This document shows, piece by piece, positions 4,925-37,359 of a stretch of 37,430 nt of DNA. The translations under genes were made by a program, and so were the position numbers. The notes under the pieces are model-generated. The model was given only the letters and a program-made list of their open reading frames with translations, was not told where the DNA came from and did no database searches. Within the stretch, counting starts at the first letter, position 1, and every line of letters begins with the position of its first letter. Source of the stretch: a virus (lineage: Duplodnaviria > Caudoviricetes); IMG/VR virus record IMGVR_UViG_3300033475_000094, positions 1-37,430 of that record. One strand, 5' to 3'.

Positions 4925-7249
4925 TTAGGTCTGGTCTACTGTCAGCAGTGCAGAATCACTTGTAACTGCGCTTGAATCCGCTGAGAATTGGGTATAAAGA
5001 ATTTCTTCGTCGATGGTATATTTAGCTGAATCAGCGTTAACAACCGACAGATCCGCTGTGAACCATAGCTGTACTGTTGGATCAGCAGTATTTGATTCAT
5101 ACGCAATAGTCAGAGGAGCGTCTTCAGCTGAAATGAGCTGGAATTCTCCAAAAAGCTCAGCACCCGCTGGATGGAATGTGTTATAAAGAATGTCTTTATA
5201 TTGTTCCAGTTGTGATGCTGCTTTAATTTGATATGAATAGTCTTGGTAAAAGAAGCTATCCTGGATATATTTATCCGAGTTTAGGAAGCCCTTCGTTGTG
5301 CTCCAATAACCCGGCGCCTTACCAACACCGCCTTTGATTACATGGGCGATAACTTGTGATGTAGTGTTGAATTGGACTAACGAACAAGTAAAGGAAGCAC
5401 CTGTGCCATTCTTGGATTGCACAGTTATTGTAGGGATTGAAGCAAGACCAGAACCTGCATATGTTATTGTGGTTGATGTAATAGTTCCATTTGCATCAGT
5501 TGTGACAAAACCAGTCGGTGTTGTACCATTACCACCTGAGAATACAAGAGCATCACCATTTGAATATCCTACACCGCCTGAGGTAATAACAGGATTCGAT
5601 ACCGCTGAATAGAGATAAAGTTCAACTGTTTCACCATCGACATAACCTTTACCTGAGTTGTAGATATCCACAGTACCGATGACTGAGTTGCCTGATGACG
5701 GAAATGCATCAACTAATGTGTTCAGACCATTTATTGATCCATCTGATGATACCATAAGAGGGTCTGGTGGTGTGAAATTCGCTGGGAAAATTGCAGGAGC
5801 CACATAGAATGCAGAAGTACCATTTGATGTATTGGTAGGCGGACCATACAAGGTAATTGATGTATCTGAATTGACCTGTTTTACTACCGCATATTCAATA
5901 CTGGTAGACAGGTTATTTGCTTGTAGAGCAATGTAACTATTGTTGGAAAAATACCAAGTGAAGTTAGTTCCTGATCCTGTTACAGTATTGGCAGCAGAGT
6001 TATAGTTCACACTACCAGGAAGAGCCAGAGAATTTTCAATTGACTCAACAAACGTATTTGCCACAACGGTATAACTGTTACCTGTCTGTATATTAGTTAG
6101 AGTAACAAGTGATCCGAAAGTATTGCTTGCCCACGATAGTGATGTACCAACATTTGATGTTAGATTGGCTACATTGTTAGCCGGTAAGTTGTATTGGCTG
6201 GCATTCAAGGTAGTCGTAAGATAATTTGCAATGACATCCGTATTGTACGTCACTGTTTGAGTATTAGAAATAGCACCAACGGCAAACGAAGCACCGGTTC
6301 CTGGCGTATTTCCATTACCTGGATATACTAATATTGTTGGGGATGAAGTAATACCAAATCCTGGCTTACGAACAGAGAAATTCAATGAACCGAACGCTTG
6401 GGTTAGGCTGCTAACACGAACAACGCCATTAATACCAAATGATACCACCGCATTATTGCTTAGATCATTGTGAACAATCGCTAGAATGTCACCAACATTA
6501 AACCCTTGACCGCCATTAACAATGCTAAGATCATTTAATGAGCCAGTGATGATTGGAGCCTTGCCGACAATATCAGCAAACATGGTTGATCCAAGAACAT
6601 CATGATCTACAATCTTCTCACCCTCGATGAATGCACCACCCTTTGGCTGCATATTTGAAATATACAGAGAAGCGACTAAGTTGTTGTTAATGGGTTCGGT
6701 AATATAGCTTTCAACAACCGCAGTGGTATTTGAGGATAACCCAATAATCGTTTTTCCTACGAAATTAGGCAGGAAATCTGTTTTCGTGACTTCAATATAT
6801 GTGGGTACAGTCCAAGTTCCATCACTGGGTGCAAGGAGGTCATTTCCAGGAAGATAGACATCGATGTCTTCATTATAGATGAGTTTGAAGAGCAGACGAT
6901 AACACTGAATTGATCCTTTGGATCTATATACATCCAAAATGTGCTTAAGCAGGAATCGTTTGTTAATAATGACATTGAATGGGATGCCATACAGATATTT
7001 TTTCTGGAAATGTTCCAGAAATGATTCAAGGGTGTTGTCAATATCTCTGTAATTTAGAAGATTACGAGATTGATATATGATGTTAGTTGAAGTTGCAACA
7101 TTATTTTCATATGTAGGACTATATGCCTGCTCAAGGAATTCATAATACGCCTGTACAAACAAAATGAAGTTCGGCCCCTCTGTCTTATAAAAGTCAGGAA
7201 ATTGAGAGGCAATGAACGGAGATATCTGTTTTTGGATATCAAATTGCAT
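4925..7249 (-). CDS. baseplate wedge initiator, gp7-like
   Basis: QFPDFY..FILFVQAYYEFLE, YRSKGS, KYIQDSFFYQDYSYQIK and HPAG motifs; directly downstream of gp6. Confidence 0.75.
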   Translation of the reverse strand: MQFDIQKQISPFIASQFPDFYKTEGPNFILFVQAYYEFLEQAYSPTYENNVATSTNIIYQSRNLLNYRDIDNTLESFLEHFQKKYLYGIPFNVIINKRFLLKHILDVYRSKGSIQCYRLLFKLIYNEDIDVYLPGNDLLAPSDGTWTVPTYIEVTKTDFLPNFVGKTIIGLSSNTTAVVESYITEPINNNLVASLYISNMQPKGGAFIEGEKIVDHDVLGSTMFADIVGKAPIITGSLNDLSIVNGGQGFNVGDILAIVHNDLSNNAVVSFGINGVVRVSSLTQAFGSLNFSVRKPGFGITSSPTILVYPGNGNTPGTGASFAVGAISNTQTVTYNTDVIANYLTTTLNASQYNLPANNVANLTSNVGTSLSWASNTFGSLVTLTNIQTGNSYTVVANTFVESIENSLALPGSVNYNSAANTVTGSGTNFTWYFSNNSYIALQANNLSTSIEYAVVKQVNSDTSITLYGPPTNTSNGTSAFYVAPAIFPANFTPPDPLMVSSDGSINGLNTLVDAFPSSGNSVIGTVDIYNSGKGYVDGETVELYLYSAVSNPVITSGGVGYSNGDALVFSGGNGTTPTGFVTTDANGTITSTTITYAGSGLASIPTITVQSKNGTGASFTCSLVQFNTTSQVIAHVIKGGVGKAPGYWSTTKGFLNSDKYIQDSFFYQDYSYQIKAASQLEQYKDILYNTFHPAGAELFGEFQLISAEDAPLTIAYESNTADPTVQLWFTADLSVVNADSAKYTIDEEILYTQFSADSSAVTSDSALLTVDQT

Positions 7250-9078
7250 TAGTTGAGCTTATTAATAACTGTTATTGAAATATCGTTTGAATCAATGATT
7301 AGAATCTTCGACAGATTGATTAGTATGTCAGGTGTTAGTGGTGTTAAATAAAGGCTAATGTAATTTCCGTAATCAGATGCAATGAGTTTATTAATGCTTA
7401 CGTCGCCTGTTGTGTAATTCACTGTACCGATAGCAGTATTAAGGATGGTGAATTGGTTGTTTATCAAAGTATACACAACCAAATTTCCCAGGCTGTCATC
7501 TCTTATGTATGACGCAGGCCATTGAACACCATTTGCATCTGTAAATGTAAATGGAGATGAAGTAACAACTGGATTACTGTCATATTTGTTGCCTTCATTT
7601 GTACCTGATGCACCTATCTCAATATCAGCAGCATTATTGAAACTAAATGCATATGAAGTAGCAAACCCAACAAAGGGTGAAAGTCGCTTGATAATTTGCA
7701 GATTGGTTTCATTTGAAGTGATTGATGTATCCGCATTGTCAATAGCAGATACGAATTTTGAAAATCTTAGATCACCATCAAACTTCTGAAGATTTGTTGA
7801 ACTATAATTGCTGATCGCAGTGACAACTAGCGATTTAATGTCATTTGCTAACAATGAGGTCGCTGTTTGGTCATATTGTACCGTTGAAGTAACACCACAA
7901 TATAGGTAGTCGGGATCCTGGATGATTAGGCGTGTTGGCAGCCCCATGTATTCAAGTAGGAAGTTAGAGATTTCAGCCTTTACGTAATCTGGCGCCACAG
8001 TGCCAGCTTGTGGTTGCAACACAGCAACAACTCGGCCGTATTTCTTCTCAGTTAGCAACTGACCGCCAAACGTATTAACATCCTTAATAACTCCACCGAA
8101 ATTATCTAGGATCAGTGCTGAATAGTCGTCAGATGCAAGAGCCCGTTCTTGTGTCGCAAAGTAACGAGGAGCACTGAAGCGGATTGATTCAATAGCTTCA
8201 GGTGGAGCCCCGCCCGCTGAATTTGAAGTTACTGTGACAGGACCAACAATGATACCAGCACCACCATTTGTATTGGATAGACCTGAAGTTAAAGTAAAGC
8301 TGGTAATACCGTCTGCCGTGTTGCCTGATGAAACACGGTAATTTGCCGTAACTAACGCCAGGTTATCAGGAAAACGACCAAAAAGGTTATCACCAAAAAT
8401 AAGCTCATATTGACCATTTTGTGCTGCCTGTAAGAAGTAAACTGTTGAATTTGAATTCAGATGGAATAGAGTGGACGCAAATGTGAAATTTGTATTCACT
8501 GCTGATTCTGTCACCGTAACAGTGAGTGAATTTAGATCAATATTTGGATTAGTTAGAACAAATTGCTGATTGTCATTGGTGTAATCCACGACGAATGTAT
8601 CAGTAATGTATACGCCTTCAAATAATTGAAGGTTAGTAATTGAGAAAATGTTATTGCCTGAGAAATAATTGGTCTGTTGTTGGGTGGTAAACGTGAACTG
8701 GCCGTTAGTGTTTACCCCAGTGAACAATGTTCCCTTTGGAATTATCAGAGGTGGCGTTAAACCAGTAGCAGTAATGTTGAATGCAATATTGGCGCTTGAA
8801 GAACGAGCTGATTGCGGTAGGTAATTAAGCTCTTTGGCATGTGAAACAACTGAATCCAGCTTTTGAGCTGAATCCAGGAACATCTCCGATGCGACCATGT
8901 TTAAATAAAAAGCATTCAGGTAGGAATTGTACGTTTGCACGTCGATTAGAACGTTCATGTTTGAATCAGTGAACGAATAATCTTTGAAGATTGTCTGAGT
9001 GCTTAAAAACTGGATATACGCTTGCTTTAACGTATCAAAGTCCAGCGATGTGATGGAGAGTGAGGTATTAGCGGCCAT
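7249..9078 (-). CDS. baseplate wedge subunit gp6
   Basis: LDFDTLK, FKDYSF, EMFLDSAQKLDSVVSHAKELNYLP, YELIFGD and FATQERA motifs of the T4 gp6 family. Confidence 0.92.
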   Translation of the reverse strand: MAANTSLSITSLDFDTLKQAYIQFLSTQTIFKDYSFTDSNMNVLIDVQTYNSYLNAFYLNMVASEMFLDSAQKLDSVVSHAKELNYLPQSARSSSANIAFNITATGLTPPLIIPKGTLFTGVNTNGQFTFTTQQQTNYFSGNNIFSITNLQLFEGVYITDTFVVDYTNDNQQFVLTNPNIDLNSLTVTVTESAVNTNFTFASTLFHLNSNSTVYFLQAAQNGQYELIFGDNLFGRFPDNLALVTANYRVSSGNTADGITSFTLTSGLSNTNGGAGIIVGPVTVTSNSAGGAPPEAIESIRFSAPRYFATQERALASDDYSALILDNFGGVIKDVNTFGGQLLTEKKYGRVVAVLQPQAGTVAPDYVKAEISNFLLEYMGLPTRLIIQDPDYLYCGVTSTVQYDQTATSLLANDIKSLVVTAISNYSSTNLQKFDGDLRFSKFVSAIDNADTSITSNETNLQIIKRLSPFVGFATSYAFSFNNAADIEIGASGTNEGNKYDSNPVVTSSPFTFTDANGVQWPASYIRDDSLGNLVVYTLINNQFTILNTAIGTVNYTTGDVSINKLIASDYGNYISLYLTPLTPDILINLSKILIIDSNDISITVINKLN

Positions 9079-9105
9079 TTCTTACCTGATTTGCTATCGA
9101 TCAGG

Positions 9106-9112
9106 TATTTAG
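9106..9112 (-). promoter_or_regulatory. T4-type late promoter (CTAAATA) for gp6
   Basis: CTGCTAAATACC occurs identically upstream of gp6 and gp25; resembles the T4 late TATAAATA box. Confidence 0.65.
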
Positions 9113-9128
9113 CAGAATTCTAGTCAAG

Positions 9129-9170
9129 AAAAAGCCGGTCGACTCCGGGGCTGACAGGTCGACCGGCTTT
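9129..9170 (-). terminator. intrinsic terminator of sRNA-B
   Basis: AAAGCCGGUCGAC..GUCGACCGGCUUUUU. Confidence 0.8.
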
Positions 9171-9238
9171 GTGCCACTACCAACAAAGGAGCCACCCCAC
9201 CGTTGGGGAGCCCGTTACCTACGTGGCGCTCGGTAACT
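9129..9238 (-). ncRNA. candidate trans-acting antisense sRNA (sRNA-B) with anti-leader/anti-SD seed
   Basis: Own promoter TTGACA-N12-CTGCTA (9241-9268), two 5' hairpins, unpaired CUCCUUUGUUGGUA, 13-bp terminator plus U-run; no plausible ORF. Confidence 0.7.
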
Positions 9239-9240
9239 AC

Positions 9241-9268
9241 ACAATAGCAGGTATACCATCCCTGTCAA
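9241..9268 (-). promoter_or_regulatory. early-type sigma70 promoter
   Basis: TTGACA-N12-CTGCTATTGT, same geometry as the early array. Confidence 0.75.
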
Positions 9269-9271
9269 GAT

Positions 9272-9382
9272 AAAAGCGGCTACAATCTCACAATGCAACC
9301 GCCTTTACCTCGAGAATATGTGTTTGAACGGTTCTGCACCATCTGGGCCTCGCGGCCTGATGGTTACTGCTTACATTCAGCC
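9272..9382 (-). ncRNA. candidate structured ncRNA (ncRNA-A)
   Basis: GTGCTACAAT -10 box, rod-like hairpin capped by a GGCC-GCGA-GGCC GNRA tetraloop, terminator GCGGUUGCA/UGUAGCCGC-UUUU. Confidence 0.45.
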
Positions 9383-9431
9383 TCTCCATTGTAGCACTGC
9401 AAACCGTTTGCAGCATCGATATCGTAGCAAA

Positions 9432-9857
9432 TTACCTAACACGTTTCAAGAGAATTGGTAAATTTATTACGTTGGGATTGTTCACAAGTTGAAAAACAAT
9501 GTTGACAGCAATGCCGTTATTATTAGGCGAGTCGAGCACAGTGAGATTAATGATGGTAATGCGTGGCTCAAACTGTCGAGCGCTAAGTGTTATTGCATTG
9601 CGAATGTCTTCTATGAGAAACGGTGTGTCGAGCTCAAACATAGATTGCACTACATTAGTGCCAAAGAAAGGCTGGAAAAAACGACCAAAAACTGCTGTAT
9701 AAACGAGATTCTTGAAAGCTTGTCGTACAGCATCTTCATTCTTCAATACGACGAGCTGATTTGTAATTGGATGCTTGACCAAATTGTTCGAGAAGTCAGA
9801 ATAGGTTTCTATCTTCTTCTGCGTTTGTGTTATAAGATCAGCGCGACTAATTGACAT
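9432..9857 (-). CDS. baseplate wedge subunit gp25
   Basis: YSDF..HPIT..KNEDAVRQAFKNLV..RFFQPFFG..FEPRI: gp25 family. Confidence 0.92.
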   Translation of the reverse strand: MSISRADLITQTQKKIETYSDFSNNLVKHPITNQLVVLKNEDAVRQAFKNLVYTAVFGRFFQPFFGTNVVQSMFELDTPFLIEDIRNAITLSARQFEPRITIINLTVLDSPNNNGIAVNIVFQLVNNPNVINLPILLKRVR

Positions 9858-9879
9858 TTAATGCCCTTTCCCTTAATCT
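9851..9879 (+). promoter_or_regulatory. sigma70 promoter for the + strand three-gene unit
   Basis: TTGACA-N17-TAATCT overlapping the gp25 start codon. Confidence 0.55.
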
Positions 9880-9881
9880 GG

Positions 9882-9888
9882 TATTTAG
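9882..9888 (-). promoter_or_regulatory. T4-type late promoter (CTAAATA) for gp25
   Basis: CTGCTAAATACC about 25 nt upstream of the gp25 ATG. Confidence 0.65.
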
Positions 9889-9896
9889 CAGCGACC

Positions 9897-10133
9897 ATGG
9901 GATATCTTATGCCTGATAGCGTTAAAGCCAATGAAGTTGAGTTGAGCACTATCCGTGAAGAATTGCGAGGATATGGAATTGCTCATGAGCGAGTTGATTC
10001 ATTAATGGTTGAGCTAATACAGGTAGGCCAGCAAGTTATTTGCGCCTCACTTGGTGAAGTAGCCGGCGCTACATCAATTGCCCCTGAGACGTTGAAGGTA
10101 CTGATCGCCACTCTAGTTGCCCATGGAAAATGA
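9897..10133 (+). CDS. hypothetical protein
   Basis: Start moved downstream of the + promoter (9897 or 9909); ATGA-coupled to the next ORF. Confidence 0.6.
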   Translation: MGYLMPDSVKANEVELSTIREELRGYGIAHERVDSLMVELIQVGQQVICASLGEVAGATSIAPETLKVLIATLVAHGK

Positions 10134-10342
10134 GAAAATACGATCCTGACAAGTTGTTGAGTCTGATGAATTTTCTCTGCTGGTACCAGCAGGACCAACC
10201 AGGAGCCTATTGGGGCGGCGTTCCCATAGAAACTGCTATGCAAGGGCTACAACATGTGCTAGGCCTTGATGATGAGGCCTTTGAGTTGCTTAAGCAAGTA
10301 TCTTTGGGCACATACACTCCAGGGGAGCCAAAAAATGACTAA
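10130..10342 (+). CDS. hypothetical protein
   Basis: Overlap-coupled to both neighbours. Confidence 0.65.
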   Translation: MRKYDPDKLLSLMNFLCWYQQDQPGAYWGGVPIETAMQGLQHVLGLDDEAFELLKQVSLGTYTPGEPKND

Positions 10343-10532
10343 GTGGGATATTTACGGCGTTGATGGTAAGATCGGCGTCTTAGAGGCTGTTACGTACGAG
10401 CTTGCCAGAGATGCGGCAAGAAAACAGTATCCCGAACTCGGTAATCGTGTTCGGGTCTACAGAGCCAAGGTGGAGCAAGAGAAGACATCTACTCGTGCTG
10501 AACGTCTTGCTCGCCGAATCCCTCGCCGCTAG
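10335..10532 (+). CDS. hypothetical protein (MTKWDIYG...)
   Basis: GGGGAG RBS before ATG 10335; ends just before the convergent hairpin. Confidence 0.65.
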   Translation: MTKWDIYGVDGKIGVLEAVTYELARDAARKQYPELGNRVRVYRAKVEQEKTSTRAERLARRIPRR

Positions 10533-11849: not shown

Positions 11850-12125
11850 TTAGTAGGTCTTGGTAGTACGGACTTCCGTGCTCTTGCCGTCAATCTTGAT
11901 TCGGATTTCAAGGTTTGGATCAATCAACTCCTTGCCGTCCTTTACAAGTGCAAGAATTGATTGATATACTACCTCACCATAGGCCTTTTTCAAGGTCTCG
12001 GTACGCAAATCTTCAATATCAATGTTGTGTTCAATCTCAGTGCTGGGTAAAGGATTGAACACCTTAATGGTTGCGCCTTCTGGCGTGGTTTGCCACACCG
12101 TGGCCTTTATAGTATGATAGCTCAT
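11850..12125 (-). CDS. hypothetical protein
   Basis: Preceded by TACCAACAACGGAG leader. Confidence 0.65.
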   Translation of the reverse strand: MSYHTIKATVWQTTPEGATIKVFNPLPSTEIEHNIDIEDLRTETLKKAYGEVVYQSILALVKDGKELIDPNLEIRIKIDGKSTEVRTTKTY

Positions 12126-12181
12126 TTAAATTGGCCTTACTCCGTTGTTGGTAACTCAAACTAATTAGTTAAACGTTGATC

Positions 12182-14594: not shown

Positions 14595-14671
14595 ACACCC
14601 GGCTCCTTAGTTGGTAGCCCAGTATAGCACATCAGGCCAAGCTGTCAACCCTATGAGTTGACGCTATTTCA

Positions 14672-21151: not shown

Positions 21152-21240
21152 TGTGTCGCTCCTTAGTTGGTATCCGCAGAATAGCACGGCCCGAACTAGA
21201 GTCAAACACTTTTTCAAACGGAAGGTGTTGCACCGCAATA

Positions 21241-22427: not shown

Positions 22428-22476
22428 AGCGTGCTCCTGTGTTGGTAGAAGCACGCTAGCACAGTTTGGAGGGTTG

Positions 22477-22854: not shown

Positions 22855-22943
22855 TTCGTTCTCCGTTGTTGGTACGCTACCATAGCACACTTTGGAACAG
22901 AGTCAAACGTTATTTCAAACTATTTTCAAAAGAGTTGGGAGGC

Positions 22944-23303
22944 CTAAGCGGCCTCCCGTTGCTCCTTATTAGCTTTCTTCGCTTTCGCAGCCTCGTCGAG
23001 CTGCTTCCAATACTTGACGATGCGGGAGTAGCCAGTCCGTTCGGAACGCTTTACCCACTTCTGTACGACCCAATCGGGCAAGCACCCATCCTTCAGGTAC
23101 TTCTTGGCACCCAGACAGCCTCCAAAGCCATCCGCCCCCGTAAATCCAACGCCGTTATCAACGTTGGTGGTGTTGGCGTCCTTTTCAGCTGCTGTCTGCC
23201 TCTTAAAGAGCACGACAAGGGCCCTTCCAACCGTATGCATCTGGATGTCGCCACCCTGGTCAATGAGGGCCTGGAGGAAATCACGGGTTACGAGGTGGGT
23301 CAT
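22944..23303 (-). CDS. hypothetical early protein
   Basis: Perfect leader TACCAACAAAGGAG; RQT..E...T...NGVGF motif. Confidence 0.8.
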   Translation of the reverse strand: MTHLVTRDFLQALIDQGGDIQMHTVGRALVVLFKRQTAAEKDANTTNVDNGVGFTGADGFGGCLGAKKYLKDGCLPDWVVQKWVKRSERTGYSRIVKYWKQLDEAAKAKKANKEQREAA

Positions 23304-23393
23304 TGGGATAACTCCTTTGTTGGTATGCCCACGATAGCACAGTTTGGAGTAATGTCAAACAGTTTTTCAAGTTTTTTTTGTGTTTTTTATAGT

Positions 23394-23428: not shown

Positions 23429-23511
23429 CACCCATGCTAACCATAGCATGGGATGATATAATGTCAAGCCACAAAAGGAAACGGGGGCTCCAAGGCCCCC
23501 TTGCTCCTCCC

Positions 23512-24478: not shown

Positions 24479-24542
24479 CTTCGTTCTCCTTGTTGGCGAC
24501 CACATGCTAGCACGAAGCGATGCAGAGTCAACAGCATATTTG

Positions 24543-25960: not shown

Positions 25961-26031
25961 CTTCGTTCTCCGTTGTTGGTATGCAGACACTAGCACACAT
26001 CGACACAGAGTCAAACGTTATTTCAAACAAA

Positions 26032-26555: not shown

Positions 26556-26660
26556 TGGGTAACTCCTATTGTTTGTTGGTACGCTATCAATAGCACACTA
26601 AGAAACAATGTCAACCCGAAGAATGGAGCGGGGAGCCTTTTTAGGGGCTCCCCTTTTCCG

Positions 26661-27042: not shown

Positions 27043-27318
27043 TCAGTCCTGGTCAGTACGCCCGACCCACTTGAGACTGCACACACCTGGAAAGAAGGAT
27101 TGGGTATGTCCGTCCATCTTAACGTAAATGCGGCCAGTGCTGCCACCGTGCCTCGGGAGCTCGATGCTCTCCAGCTCGCAAACCTCATTGCGGAACGTCT
27201 GGAGGATATCACCGGGCTTGGCTTCAATCCCTGTCGTCTCGTGTACAAGCTTGGGCACGAGGTAAGGCTGGGATTGGGTGTTCTGCGGTCCCATTGGATG
27301 GATCACTTTGCGCTTCAT
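27043..27318 (-). CDS. hypothetical early protein
   Basis: Cassette promoter 27408-27435; GGAG..CCCAAATG. Confidence 0.75.
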   Translation of the reverse strand: MKRKVIHPMGPQNTQSQPYLVPKLVHETTGIEAKPGDILQTFRNEVCELESIELPRHGGSTGRIYVKMDGHTQSFFPGVCSLKWVGRTDQD

Positions 27319-27450
27319 TTGGGCTCTCCGTTGCGGGGCTTAGCTAATACCATAAGTCCAAACTGGACTAGCACTAACTAAGCCCCTGTGTTTGCTTTAA
27401 CTCGTCCACTGTAGCACAGTTTGGAACAATGTCAAATAGTATTTCAAATA

Positions 27451-33630: not shown

Positions 33631-33668
33631 GCGATTTCTCCATTGCTAGCGACAAACGTGTTATAAGG

Positions 33669-33740
33669 AGGGCCCACCGAGACTTGAACTCGGATCTTGG
33701 GATTAAAGGTCCCTTGTTCTACCTATTGAACTATAGGCCC
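33669..33740 (-). tRNA. tRNA-Lys(UUU) with atypical C33 and U73, CCA not encoded
   Basis: Cloverleaf: GGGCCUA/UGGGCCC, D-arm GUUC/GAAC, anticodon stem GGGA/UCCC with loop CCUUUAA, T-arm CCGAG-UUCAAGU-CUCGG. Confidence 0.8.
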
Positions 33741-35371: not shown

Positions 35372-35935
35372 TTAGTCTTCTTCGTCTTCCTTAGGAGTAT
35401 AGAACGACGGCCATTGCGCATCACCAGTTTCAAGATATGAGGCAAGTGCTTGGATCGCCTGTTCCTTTGTTATATCAGCACCATCAAACACCACACAATC
35501 GTAACGAGGATCATCCCATGGATAGAAAAGAAGATGTAGCTGATTCATAGAGTCGCTGGTTGCCTCTTCATCATAATACTCGCAATCTTCAAACAGATGC
35601 TTTTCATCCATAATATATTCAGCAGTACCACCGATGCAACAAACGGAGCCGCAATTTTCAGTATATGATCGGTAATTGCTATTTTCATCATAATAACCTC
35701 TATGATAAGTGTGATATCCCAGACTTTTTGCGGTTTGCTTTGCGACAATATCAGTCTTGAATGCAGTACTTTGCCACGTGCTCATGTTGAAAAAAATCTG
35801 GGCACCAAGCTTGTCATCAGGCACCATATAGGTATCTTCAATATGCACAATGGTTCCTGCCTTAAGGGCAGCAAGGGTCGCATGGAGACCCTTGTATTGT
35901 TTGTCGTTTAATCCAAGTTGTTCTTTAGTCAGCAT
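35372..35935 (-). CDS. Cys-motif paralog family member
   Basis: LGL..Q..LH.TLAALKAG, FNM..W, CGSVCCIGGTAE, LFYPW, AIQAL..YLETGD..WP. Confidence 0.85.
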   Translation of the reverse strand: MLTKEQLGLNDKQYKGLHATLAALKAGTIVHIEDTYMVPDDKLGAQIFFNMSTWQSTAFKTDIVAKQTAKSLGYHTYHRGYYDENSNYRSYTENCGSVCCIGGTAEYIMDEKHLFEDCEYYDEEATSDSMNQLHLLFYPWDDPRYDCVVFDGADITKEQAIQALASYLETGDAQWPSFYTPKEDEED

Positions 35936-36440
35936 TACGATAATCCTCAATCACTTGCGGCCAATTAGCATCGCCGGTTTCAAGATAGTTTGTGAGTGCC
36001 TGAATGGCATTAGGCAGTGTAAGTTCTACATCAACAGGACAGACGTCAAATCGTTGATCATTCCATGGATAAAAGAGATAATAAAGACGACGGTTTTTTG
36101 CGGCTACTTCACTCCGACCATAAGTGTTCGTAATATTCGGCTCGAATAGATTAGTGGTATTGGTGATATATTCGGCAGTACCACCGATGCAACAAACGGA
36201 GCCGCAATGTTTGTTGTCAGTATATGCATGCGTCTCTTCTCCATATTCCTCTTCTTTAGTGGAGAAGATGTCATCATTCCACGCCAACATGTTGAACATG
36301 AGAAGATTTGTCTCGTCGGTTTCAATAGGATCTTCCCATTCCTCAAGATGCTTAATTTTTCCTGCTTTCAGGGCAGCGAGTGTGCTGTGGAGAGCGCCGT
36401 ATTGCTGGTCACTCAGACCAAGTTCAGTTGCAGTTTTCAT
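35925..36440 (-). CDS. Cys-motif paralog family member
   Basis: Same motif series; start 36440 (or TTG 36455). Confidence 0.85.
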   Translation of the reverse strand: MKTATELGLSDQQYGALHSTLAALKAGKIKHLEEWEDPIETDETNLLMFNMLAWNDDIFSTKEEEYGEETHAYTDNKHCGSVCCIGGTAEYITNTTNLFEPNITNTYGRSEVAAKNRRLYYLFYPWNDQRFDVCPVDVELTLPNAIQALTNYLETGDANWPQVIEDYRNAD

Positions 36441-36445
36441 TTTAT

Positions 36446-36925
36446 TTAAATCCAATCAGATTTGCCAGCATATATGCTCGGCCATTGTGAATCGCCGGTT
36501 TCAAGATAATTTGTGAGTGCCTGAATGGCTTGCTCAAGTGTAATGCCATTACCATCAATGGTGTGATGATTGTCATCATATAACGGATGTTCCCATGGAA
36601 AAAAGAGATATCTTAAATTTTTGATTTTATCATTATCACCATGATAAAACCGAATATTTTCAAAGAGGGTTCTGCCAGCAATAAACTCAGCAGTACCGCC
36701 AATACAGCAGACCGAGCCACAATGATTATCGTAGTCTTCTCCACCGTAGATCGAATCGTTCCAGGAATCCATATTGAAGAACAATCTCTTAGGATCATCA
36801 GGCAGAATATCTGTATTAGCATTCTCATCTAGATGAACGATTGTGCCAGCCTTTAGTGCTGCAAGGGTGCTATGTAAAGCAGAGAATTGTTCGGCAGATA
36901 GGCCGAGCTCGTCAGCAGTTTTCAA
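36446..36925 (-). CDS. Cys-motif paralog family member
   Basis: Same motif series; GGAG before TTG start. Confidence 0.85.
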   Translation of the reverse strand: MKTADELGLSAEQFSALHSTLAALKAGTIVHLDENANTDILPDDPKRLFFNMDSWNDSIYGGEDYDNHCGSVCCIGGTAEFIAGRTLFENIRFYHGDNDKIKNLRYLFFPWEHPLYDDNHHTIDGNGITLEQAIQALTNYLETGDSQWPSIYAGKSDWI

Positions 36926-36977: not shown

Positions 36978-36994
36978 TCAGGAATTTCAATAAT

Positions 36995-37136
36995 AAAAAA
37001 AGGGCCGCTCCCAAAGAAGCGGCCCAAGGCTAGGGAGGAAACGCCCAAGGAGGGTAACAGAAGATTACAAGAACAGACGTCCACAACAAACAAAGGACTA
37101 TGGGAACTTGTAACCAACCAGTACGTCCCAACGGAC
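36995..37136 (-). ncRNA. candidate trans-acting sRNA (sRNA-C) with anti-leader loop and several anti-SD motifs
   Basis: Promoter TTGACG-N17-TATATT (37143-37171), terminator GGGCCGCUUC/GGAGCGGCCC-U7, loop UCCUUUGUUUGUU, plus CCCUCCUU, UUCCUCCC and GUUCCC. Confidence 0.7.
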
Positions 37137-37167
37137 AATCGCAATATAGACGATTGGTGTTTGGGCG

Positions 37168-37359
37168 TCAATGCATATAAATGGCACAACCGAAGATAAT
37201 TCCCATTGCGATGATTGGACCCCAGGCCGCTAGTCTATACACATTCATTCGCATGTGATCCTCCTTTTTGTCATAGGAAACCCGCCACAGTCTGTCGGGA
37301 TCGAATCCATCGGATTCTCTGTGGCGGGTAGTTGCTATAAACCGGGCGATCCACAGCAA
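37168..37359 (-). CDS. small membrane protein (true start possibly at ATG 37254 after AAGGAGG)
   Basis: Hydrophobic C-terminal helix; strong RBS internal to the tracked ORF. Confidence 0.45.
   Translation of the reverse strand: MLWIARFIATTRHRESDGFDPDRLWRVSYDKKEDHMRMNVYRLAAWGPIIAMGIIFGCAIYMH

Follow-up and report, generated by a model that had tools for sequence, protein, structure and literature searches.

The ending of the early phase in T4-like phages is partly understood and has been credited to proteins (PMC3014915). Specifically, the T4 endoribonuclease RegB is described there as attacking the GGAG Shine-Dalgarno (SD) sequence of early mRNAs and sparing late mRNAs; its cleavage needs S1 and reads an A-rich stretch 3′ of GGAG, and the regB gene itself has an early promoter (PMC3014915). 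Among phage RNAs, the c4 antisense RNA of P1 and P7 acts in trans on the phage's own mRNA, where it partly occludes the ribosome-binding site while a second element gives specificity, and it serves lysogeny and immunity (PMC5320573). A 2025 review presents the phage RNAs that act on phage mRNAs as having single, mostly temperate-cycle targets, and includes PreS and VpdS, which are phage-borne, Hfq-dependent and trans-encoded (PMC12197685). RNAs of the SuhB/MmgR/SisA-D family (alpha-r8) are Hfq-associated and bear an anti-SD signature (PMC12559287). Finally, cluster K mycobacteriophages carry the start-associated sequence (SAS), an asymmetric 13-bp repeat that includes an SD and precedes non-structural genes; in four of their genomes one copy is inverted and has no gene start, and the account in PMC3203893 leaves open whether an RNA or a protein is its partner. 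A literature search of incomplete coverage returned no sRNA of a lytic phage directed at an early leader common to several genes.

The window analyzed here is a whole virus record of 37,430 bp (IMGVR_UViG_3300033475_000094), with a completeness estimate of 23%. T4-type baseplate proteins are encoded on the minus strand of its left part, and many small genes of unknown function are present from ~10.5 kb onward. The phage is T4-like, and an alphaproteobacterial host is probable because its gp6-like protein is ~36% identical to the counterparts in phiM12, a Sinorhizobium phage, and Cr30, a Caulobacter phage, and because an RNA of the SuhB/MmgR family is located at 36988-37062. The window also contains a tRNA-Lys with anticodon TTT (33667-33740, minus strand) and, adjoining the MmgR-like RNA, three related tandem ORFs of 159-192 aa (35372-36925, minus strand; repeat spacing ~520-550 bp) for which PHROG and Pfam searches gave no match. 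A blastn search of 7200-10400 against phages returned no match.

A predicted small RNA between gp25 and gp6

The gap between the gp25-like and gp6-like genes measures 353 bp (9079-9431; Table 1), close to the figure of roughly 350 bp given in a first-pass annotation that had placed an antisense RNA there. The RNA unit is headed by a promoter-like site on the minus strand (-35 at 9268, extended -10 ending at 9241), and the predicted +1 at 9234 carries a start motif common to several target promoters. At the other end, the annotated terminator was recovered as a 13-bp stem with U5CUU (9126-9170). Minus-strand ORFs beginning inside the unit have at most 23 codons, none with an SD, and a gap element with a promoter-like site, a terminator-like hairpin and no credible ORF is probably a stand-alone small RNA gene. 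On the plus strand, the first start behind the SD is a TTG 11 nt away that opens 14 codons, and we rejected a coding plus strand on this basis, in agreement with the earlier judgment that a sense reading is poor; matching gene leaders mostly use an ATG 7-9 nt behind the SD. Additionally, no plus-strand promoter-like site was found between 8669 and the seed, and a strong hairpin stands before the SD on that strand.

The predicted fold departs from the one first drawn. The proposed 5′ hairpin GUUACC/GGUAAC is absent from the MFE structure for starts 9233-9237 because part of its GUUACC arm (9237-9232) falls before the predicted +1 (9234). The seed had been drawn as single-stranded; its GGCUC is predicted to pair with an upstream GGGCU, leaving only CUUU open, and the energy model puts the cost of opening all 13 seed nt at ~9 kcal/mol and that of opening the 3′ 9 nt at 2.4. 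A fold with the 5′ hairpin and a fully open seed was rejected by this model, the predicted structure being one irregular stem plus the terminator, with a single contiguous seed. What survives of the original proposal of a ~110-nt stand-alone non-coding antisense unit is the unit, on the basis of its anatomy, the shuffle tests and a same-place unit in the only close relative; the accompanying fold does not.

Rfam contained no family for the 9126-9234 RNA, and its sequence alone matched only chance-level pieces of phages and plasmids. The exact 17-nt seed was present in 1 of 79 loci, which came from the same phage. The remainder of the gap (9310-9431) holds more hairpins without an SD-led ORF, and could be a 3′ extension of gp25 or a further small RNA. 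Ahead of gp6 is a motif that we take, from T4, to be late-promoter-like.

Table 1. Positions of predicted features in the window, with the evidence for each or its cofolding energy with the small RNA (kcal/mol)
Feature	Position	Strand	Evidence or details
gp6-like baseplate wedge subunit, downstream neighbor	7249..9078	-	PHROG 219, E 4.9e-147
Late-promoter-like motif before gp6	9106..9111	-	9-nt stretch here identical in relative L002
Predicted small RNA, ~109 nt	9126..9234	-	+1 taken as 7th base past -10 box
Intrinsic-terminator-like hairpin, 13-bp stem with apical extension, U5CUU tail	9126..9170	-	Fold
Seed, 13-nt perfect complement of C/A-rich leader and SD	9179..9191	-	Predicted pairing reaches 9199 with 23303 leader
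Inner hairpin CCCCA/UGGGG (second hairpin of the first-pass annotation)	9195..9208	-	Predicted extension by G.U-rich helix over anti-SD bases
Sigma-70-type promoter-like site, 28 nt, class of early-gene promoters	9241..9268	-	Pattern scan
Candidate terminator, strong hairpin and short T run, separating RNA gene from gp25 read-through	9269..9309	-	Fold
gp25-like baseplate wedge subunit, upstream neighbor	9432..9857	-	PHROG 261, E 5.9e-33
Leader-like copy without promoter directly behind	12140..12153	-	14 nt before ATG at 12125
Predicted target leader	14595..14614	-	Promoter 14648; -12.2
Predicted target leader, overlooked earlier	21152..21171	-	Promoter 21205; -12.4
Weaker predicted target leader, 38-codon ORF	22433..22446	-	Promoter 22480; -8.2
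Predicted target leader	22855..22872	-	Promoter 22906; -9.6
Best predicted target, whole 21-nt leader of 119-aa gene 22944-23303	23304..23324	-	Promoter 23358; -19.8
Predicted target leader, energy partly from pairing outside seed	24479..24497	-	Promoter 24531; -15.6
Weak predicted target leader	25961..25980	-	Promoter 26014; -7.1
Predicted target, leader of 95-aa gene ending 26555	26556..26580	-	Rank 2 of 90, -18.1; trimmed -15.3; imperfect promoter 26614
Second unit of similar design	36988..37171	-	Promoter 37171; 13-nt complement (37085-37097) of leader behind promoter 24915

Complementarity to the leaders of early-type promoters

The window contains 29 matches to the strict promoter pattern, against a shuffle mean of 1.03 and a maximum of 4 in 100 shuffles, and ~18-19 promoters lead through a C/A-rich leader of 15-50 nt and an SD to an ATG. 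The genes behind them are likely early, a label taken from promoter type only. Between 21159 and 28553 the early promoters recur as units of a dispersed 40-60-bp repeat, 300-1,500 bp apart and with a conserved A/T-rich element upstream of the -35, which looks like cassette duplication.

All six pair counts previously given for the seed were exact, namely 14/14 at 23312-23325, 16/17 at 14601-14617, 15/16 at 22433-22448, and 13/14 at 22861, 25968 and 12140, and a seventh site had been overlooked (21159-21172, 13/14). Six of these seven sites with at most one mismatch sit 4-5 nt behind a -10 box; the exception is 12140, which has no promoter directly behind it. Each quoted match includes 1-3 nt upstream of the target's predicted +1, that is, outside the predicted mRNA. 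The 14-nt perfect complement therefore holds at the DNA level, and the effective match is 13 nt once leaders are trimmed at the predicted +1.

With leaders cut in this way (the 7th base behind the -10 box, a rule applied alike to the RNA and to its targets), the best perfect complement is 13 nt long, a length attained in 11 of 20,000 dinucleotide shuffles. Leaders pairing over 13 nt with at most one mismatch numbered 6 of 18, against a maximum of 2 of 18 in 300 shuffles, in a test whose leaders were cut one base earlier than those of the 13-nt test. Leader complements of at least 11 nt occurred at only five places on the minus strand window-wide, and the two longest, both of 13 nt, were in non-coding promoter-to-terminator units, ~42-47 nt behind the predicted RNA starts. 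Over 21 nt, the seed and the best leader differ at three positions, all G.U-compatible and also common transitions. The complementarity and the RNA-gene sequence layout are a real, non-random sequence feature.

Cofolding with self-structure counted placed the gene starting at 23303 first of 90 starts, with a modeled helix of 21 bp, three of them G.U, that extends from the first base of the mRNA to the base before the AUG. This gene (22944-23303) belongs to phrog_21015, which is of unknown function, and 34 other homologues were found. The median cofolding energy was -8.8 kcal/mol for 19 promoter-proximal leaders, a set that left out the 26614 leader, whose promoter failed the pattern. The 44 operon-internal starts had a median of -4.8, a difference with Mann-Whitney p 2.5e-5, and six late genes had one of -4.65; values of -8 or better were reached by 13/19 promoter-proximal and 9/44 operon-internal starts. 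In a modest energy test, 1 of 60 shuffles of the 5′ domain reached the promoter-proximal median and 1 of 60 the best value. In this model, specificity for promoter-proximal leaders appears real but moderate.

Pfam named none of the target proteins tested, and 2 of 30 proteins had any match. The protein P0002, a 73%-identical homologue, is on a 37-kb contig; locus searches with a 329-aa protein and with P0002 found none, and three degenerate promoter-leader/promoter-seed scans gave no contig sharing early-region genes among the matches listed.

Other features lie behind promoters of this region. A long near-perfect hairpin (27345-27405, minus strand) is found behind promoter 27435, in the leader of a 91-aa gene ending at 27318. 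Promoters 23467 (-), 28052 (+), 28555 (+), and 21981 (-) precede non-coding stretches that share a CCCGGAG core, followed in three of the four by CCTGA, and a small hairpin common to the stretches at 23467 and 28052 has the same 8-nt loop in both and a compensatory change in its stem. Rfam gave no match for the four stretches, which are possibly sponge or decoy RNAs, or an undescribed motif. Promoters 28555 (+) and 28691 (-) converge across ~80 non-coding bases and would give a sense-antisense RNA pair.

Units at the same junction and in other phages

Such a gap was lacking in 67 of 70 gp25-gp6 junctions, the other three being those of this phage (L001) and of one relative (L002 and L005), whose gp25 is 78% identical to that of the window phage. 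The relative is a single lineage, in that L002, L005, L082, and L083 agree over the stretches compared. A gp25 search of viral contigs recovered only the window phage itself. The relative's gp25-gp6 gap of 977 bp (L005 5122-6063; L002 658-1599) holds an orphan ORF of 172 aa, a promoter-leader opening a 2-codon ORF, and a three-hairpin unit. The latter is located just before gp6 and comprises promoter-led strong hairpins (z -9.2), with a promoter-like site inside the first and without a clear U tail. Its seed, partly placed in a hairpin loop, complements 10 nt of the relative's own leader in the stretch from the SD to the start, and was equaled in 54 (short form) and 115 (long form) of 20,000 shuffles (p 0.003-0.006). 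The relative's RNA cofolds with its own leader at -14.5 (short form) and -10.3 (long form), a comparison that involves two leaders from one lineage. Cross-specificity between the two systems appears mixed in these models: the window RNA gave -3.2 with the relative's matched leader and -13.6 with its second leader, and energies for the relative's RNA with window leaders went as low as -10.9. Sequence homology between the two RNAs was rejected (p 0.19), and Rfam contained no family for the relative's unit. The junction may tolerate insertions, since that of phiM12 is likewise interrupted, by an HNH nuclease gene (L592 2209-3018).

Within the window, the 3′ domain of the second unit (Table 1) belongs to the SuhB/MmgR (alpha-r8) family (36988-37062; 64.8 bits against a cut-off of 41), and a 5′ extension of ~75 nt ahead of this MmgR-like domain carries the 13-nt leader complement. 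The unit passed the word test (128 of 20,000 shuffles) and failed the energy test (p 0.115); it was rejected as energetic support and counts as weak support, because 32 of 35 shuffles were as good. This family (Rfam RF00519) was absent from all 28 other phage records searched.

In a strict screen, SD-covering complements were present in 2 of 3 terminated window units versus 0 of 69 units from 12 other records, two of which were without detectable leaders. A relaxed screen exposed one case in 17 other phage records, in G010, where a minus-strand unit (L514 ~2060-2205) comprises a promoter, a GC-rich hairpin, a 17-nt pyrimidine loop, and a U-tailed terminator. The loop mirrors that phage's own leader family over 12 nt (26 of 5,000 shuffles did as well, with no correction for the screening of 17 records), with 9 of 23 leaders matching it at 9 nt or more, and the unit appears to be an unrelated analogue of the window RNA. 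The design was absent from the 16 remaining records, among them the cultured Cr30, phiM12, and RHph_I1_18 and several with few detectable leaders, and a screen of DLP_6 gave no such unit. A loose terminator rule cut the window RNA inside its seed; the screening rule was tightened and then relaxed to admit L005, such that the rules were adjusted after the window and L005 had been seen. Matches in L184/185, L186, L205, L214, L232, L456, and L459, and in G001, G003, G005, G009, and a different G010 unit, were set aside by eye on the grounds of apparent real starts on the other strand, self-hairpins, or failure to cover the SD.

Proposed function and comparison with known systems

We consider it somewhat better than an even bet that the RNA is a trans-acting antisense brake on early translation, which would resemble RegB in effect but act by base-pairing. 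The earlier claim of antisense action on the shared leaders of promoter-proximal genes retains the complementarity, the shuffle tests and the relative's matched unit, and loses the fold and the 14-nt length. Like its targets, the RNA would be transcribed by host sigma-70 polymerase as soon as infection begins; a precedent for a brake made together with its targets is T4 regB, which itself uses an early promoter. Protected by its terminator, and perhaps by Hfq binding, the RNA would accumulate while target mRNAs turn over, resulting in a delayed brake. Pairing would begin between the open CUUU/GUUGGU part and an unstructured mRNA 5′ end, and would then displace the RNA's own weak G.U helix and cover the SD. 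Shut-off would be strongest for the 23303 gene, with its 21-bp helix, and graded for other leaders, while late structural genes would escape. The seed itself probably arose as an inverted copy of the promoter-leader cassette. Counting against the brake are the predicted pairing of much of the seed, the modest energy-shuffle test (1/60), and the fact that the RNA is a predicted one, from one lineage.

Several other readings of the locus have to be weighed. It is unlikely that the RNA is real and mainly targets host mRNAs with strong C/A-rich ribosome-binding sites, phage leaders being mimics of host signals. Such a role would suit a phage that carries a member of a host-type anti-SD sRNA family (SuhB/MmgR), and it would accord with the 9/44 operon-internal starts that also bind at -8 or better and with GcvB, which uses G/U-rich seeds against C/A-rich enhancers; a generic anti-RBS seed, however, does not predict a 21-bp helix over one entire phage leader, and the relative has a different seed fitted to a different phage leader. 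Host RNAs are indeed acted on by the lytic-cycle phage sRNAs PreS and VpdS, according to PMC12197685. Quite unlikely, too, is a mere relic, in which an early promoter-leader cassette entered the gap in inverted orientation, no longer has its start codon or gene, and now lies by chance between a promoter and a terminator. Plus-strand bases ahead of the copy look like a damaged -10 box at the right spacing, the complement reaches past the targets' predicted +1 into upstream bases, as expected of a copy made in DNA, the relative's gap holds other cassette debris (the leader opening a 2-codon ORF), and part of the seed is predicted to be hidden. Yet the promoter and both flanking terminators appear intact, and the arrangement recurs, with two examples in the window and one each in the relative and G010, every one having a matching seed of its own; the G.U-compatibility of all three differences from the best leader also speaks against a relic, weakly, as these are common transitions too. 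The damaged -10-like box on the plus strand and the match past the targets' +1 probably tell of the seed's origin, whether it works or not.

The same pairing could serve another purpose, with accumulated RNA blocking the first mRNAs of related phages that arrive later, although we regard such superinfection exclusion as very unlikely. A pre-made pool would act best on a newcomer where RNA and targets share one promoter class, and the window RNA binds one of the relative's leaders at -13.6; moreover, antisense RNAs of temperate phages serve exclusion, as described for STnc6030 and sas (PMC12197685) and for c4 (PMC5320573). These precedents are prophage systems, whereas the phage here is T4-like and shows no lysogeny sign in its 23%-complete record, and the best partner found was the phage's own gene. 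Least probable of all is an action in cis or as a decoy, be it an insulator or attenuator guarding the gp6 operon from early transcription, an Hfq/S1 sink, or a plus-strand SD decoy. The two terminators that flank the unit, the late-promoter-like motif after it, and the resemblance of the seed hairpin and subsequent UUUGUU to a weak terminator would fit, as would the competition of VpdS for Hfq (PMC12197685), but an insulator requires neither a promoter nor a seed, and the plus strand lacks a promoter-like site from 8669 to the seed and has a strong hairpin ahead of the SD.

A wider version of the antisense brake is possible but doubtful. It holds that RNA timers have arisen again and again in T4-like and other large phages through inversion of one copy of the early leader cassette behind an early promoter, such that each lineage's custom antisense RNA shuts its whole early regulon, and that the early leaders are shared out between the two window RNAs, one of which is joined to an MmgR domain captured from a host.

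The likeness of the proposed brake to RegB, as the latter is portrayed in PMC3014915, is a functional analogy only, consisting of early translation shut-off at the SD and an early promoter. RegB is a protein that cleaves; the window element is an RNA predicted to pair with the SD and with a C/A-rich stretch 5′ of GGAG. With c4, in the description of PMC5320573, it would share the action of a phage RNA in trans on the phage's own mRNA at the ribosome-binding site. Unlike c4, a three-stem, RNase P-processed RNA with two loops, the window RNA appears to be a primary unit that runs from promoter to terminator in a T4-like setting and has a single contiguous seed and many predicted targets. The c4/CI RNA model RF01695 had no match at E up to 10 in 9079-9432, the record gave 0 c4/CI candidates in a search whose controls gave no signal, and the three-stem fold with two targeting loops differs from the fold predicted here. 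Not being a protein, and without an RF01695 match or a three-stem fold, the predicted RNA belongs to neither the RegB nor the c4 class.

At the sequence level, the RNA has the marks of an Hfq-type sRNA, namely its own promoter, an intrinsic terminator, an intergenic position, no coding capacity, and a seed complementary to remote translation-start regions. Its length of ~110 nt, U-tailed terminator, and short seed against several ribosome-binding sites are likewise of this type, in the terms of PMC12197685 and PMC12559287. The predicted targets, in contrast, are the phage's own leader family, and the pairing of 13-21 bp is longer than that of typical seeds; RF00519 matched the separate RNA at 36988-37062 and not the 9126-9234 RNA. 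The layout is also analogous to that of SAS, given the repeated asymmetric ribosome-binding motif before genes and the inverted copy without a gene start. The two differ in sequence, host phylum, and phage type, the repeat here is tied to a promoter family, and the SAS passages of PMC3203893 describe no promoter-terminator unit around the inverted copy. By eye, the window leader and the SAS consensus printed in that paper have only the SD core in common. An antisense brake at this locus would hint at what the single inverted SAS copies in cluster K mycobacteriophages might do. The early-to-late switch would gain an RNA-based route if one RNA recognized a leader that many scattered early genes have in common, and such a brake, if true, would be an RNA counterpart of RegB.
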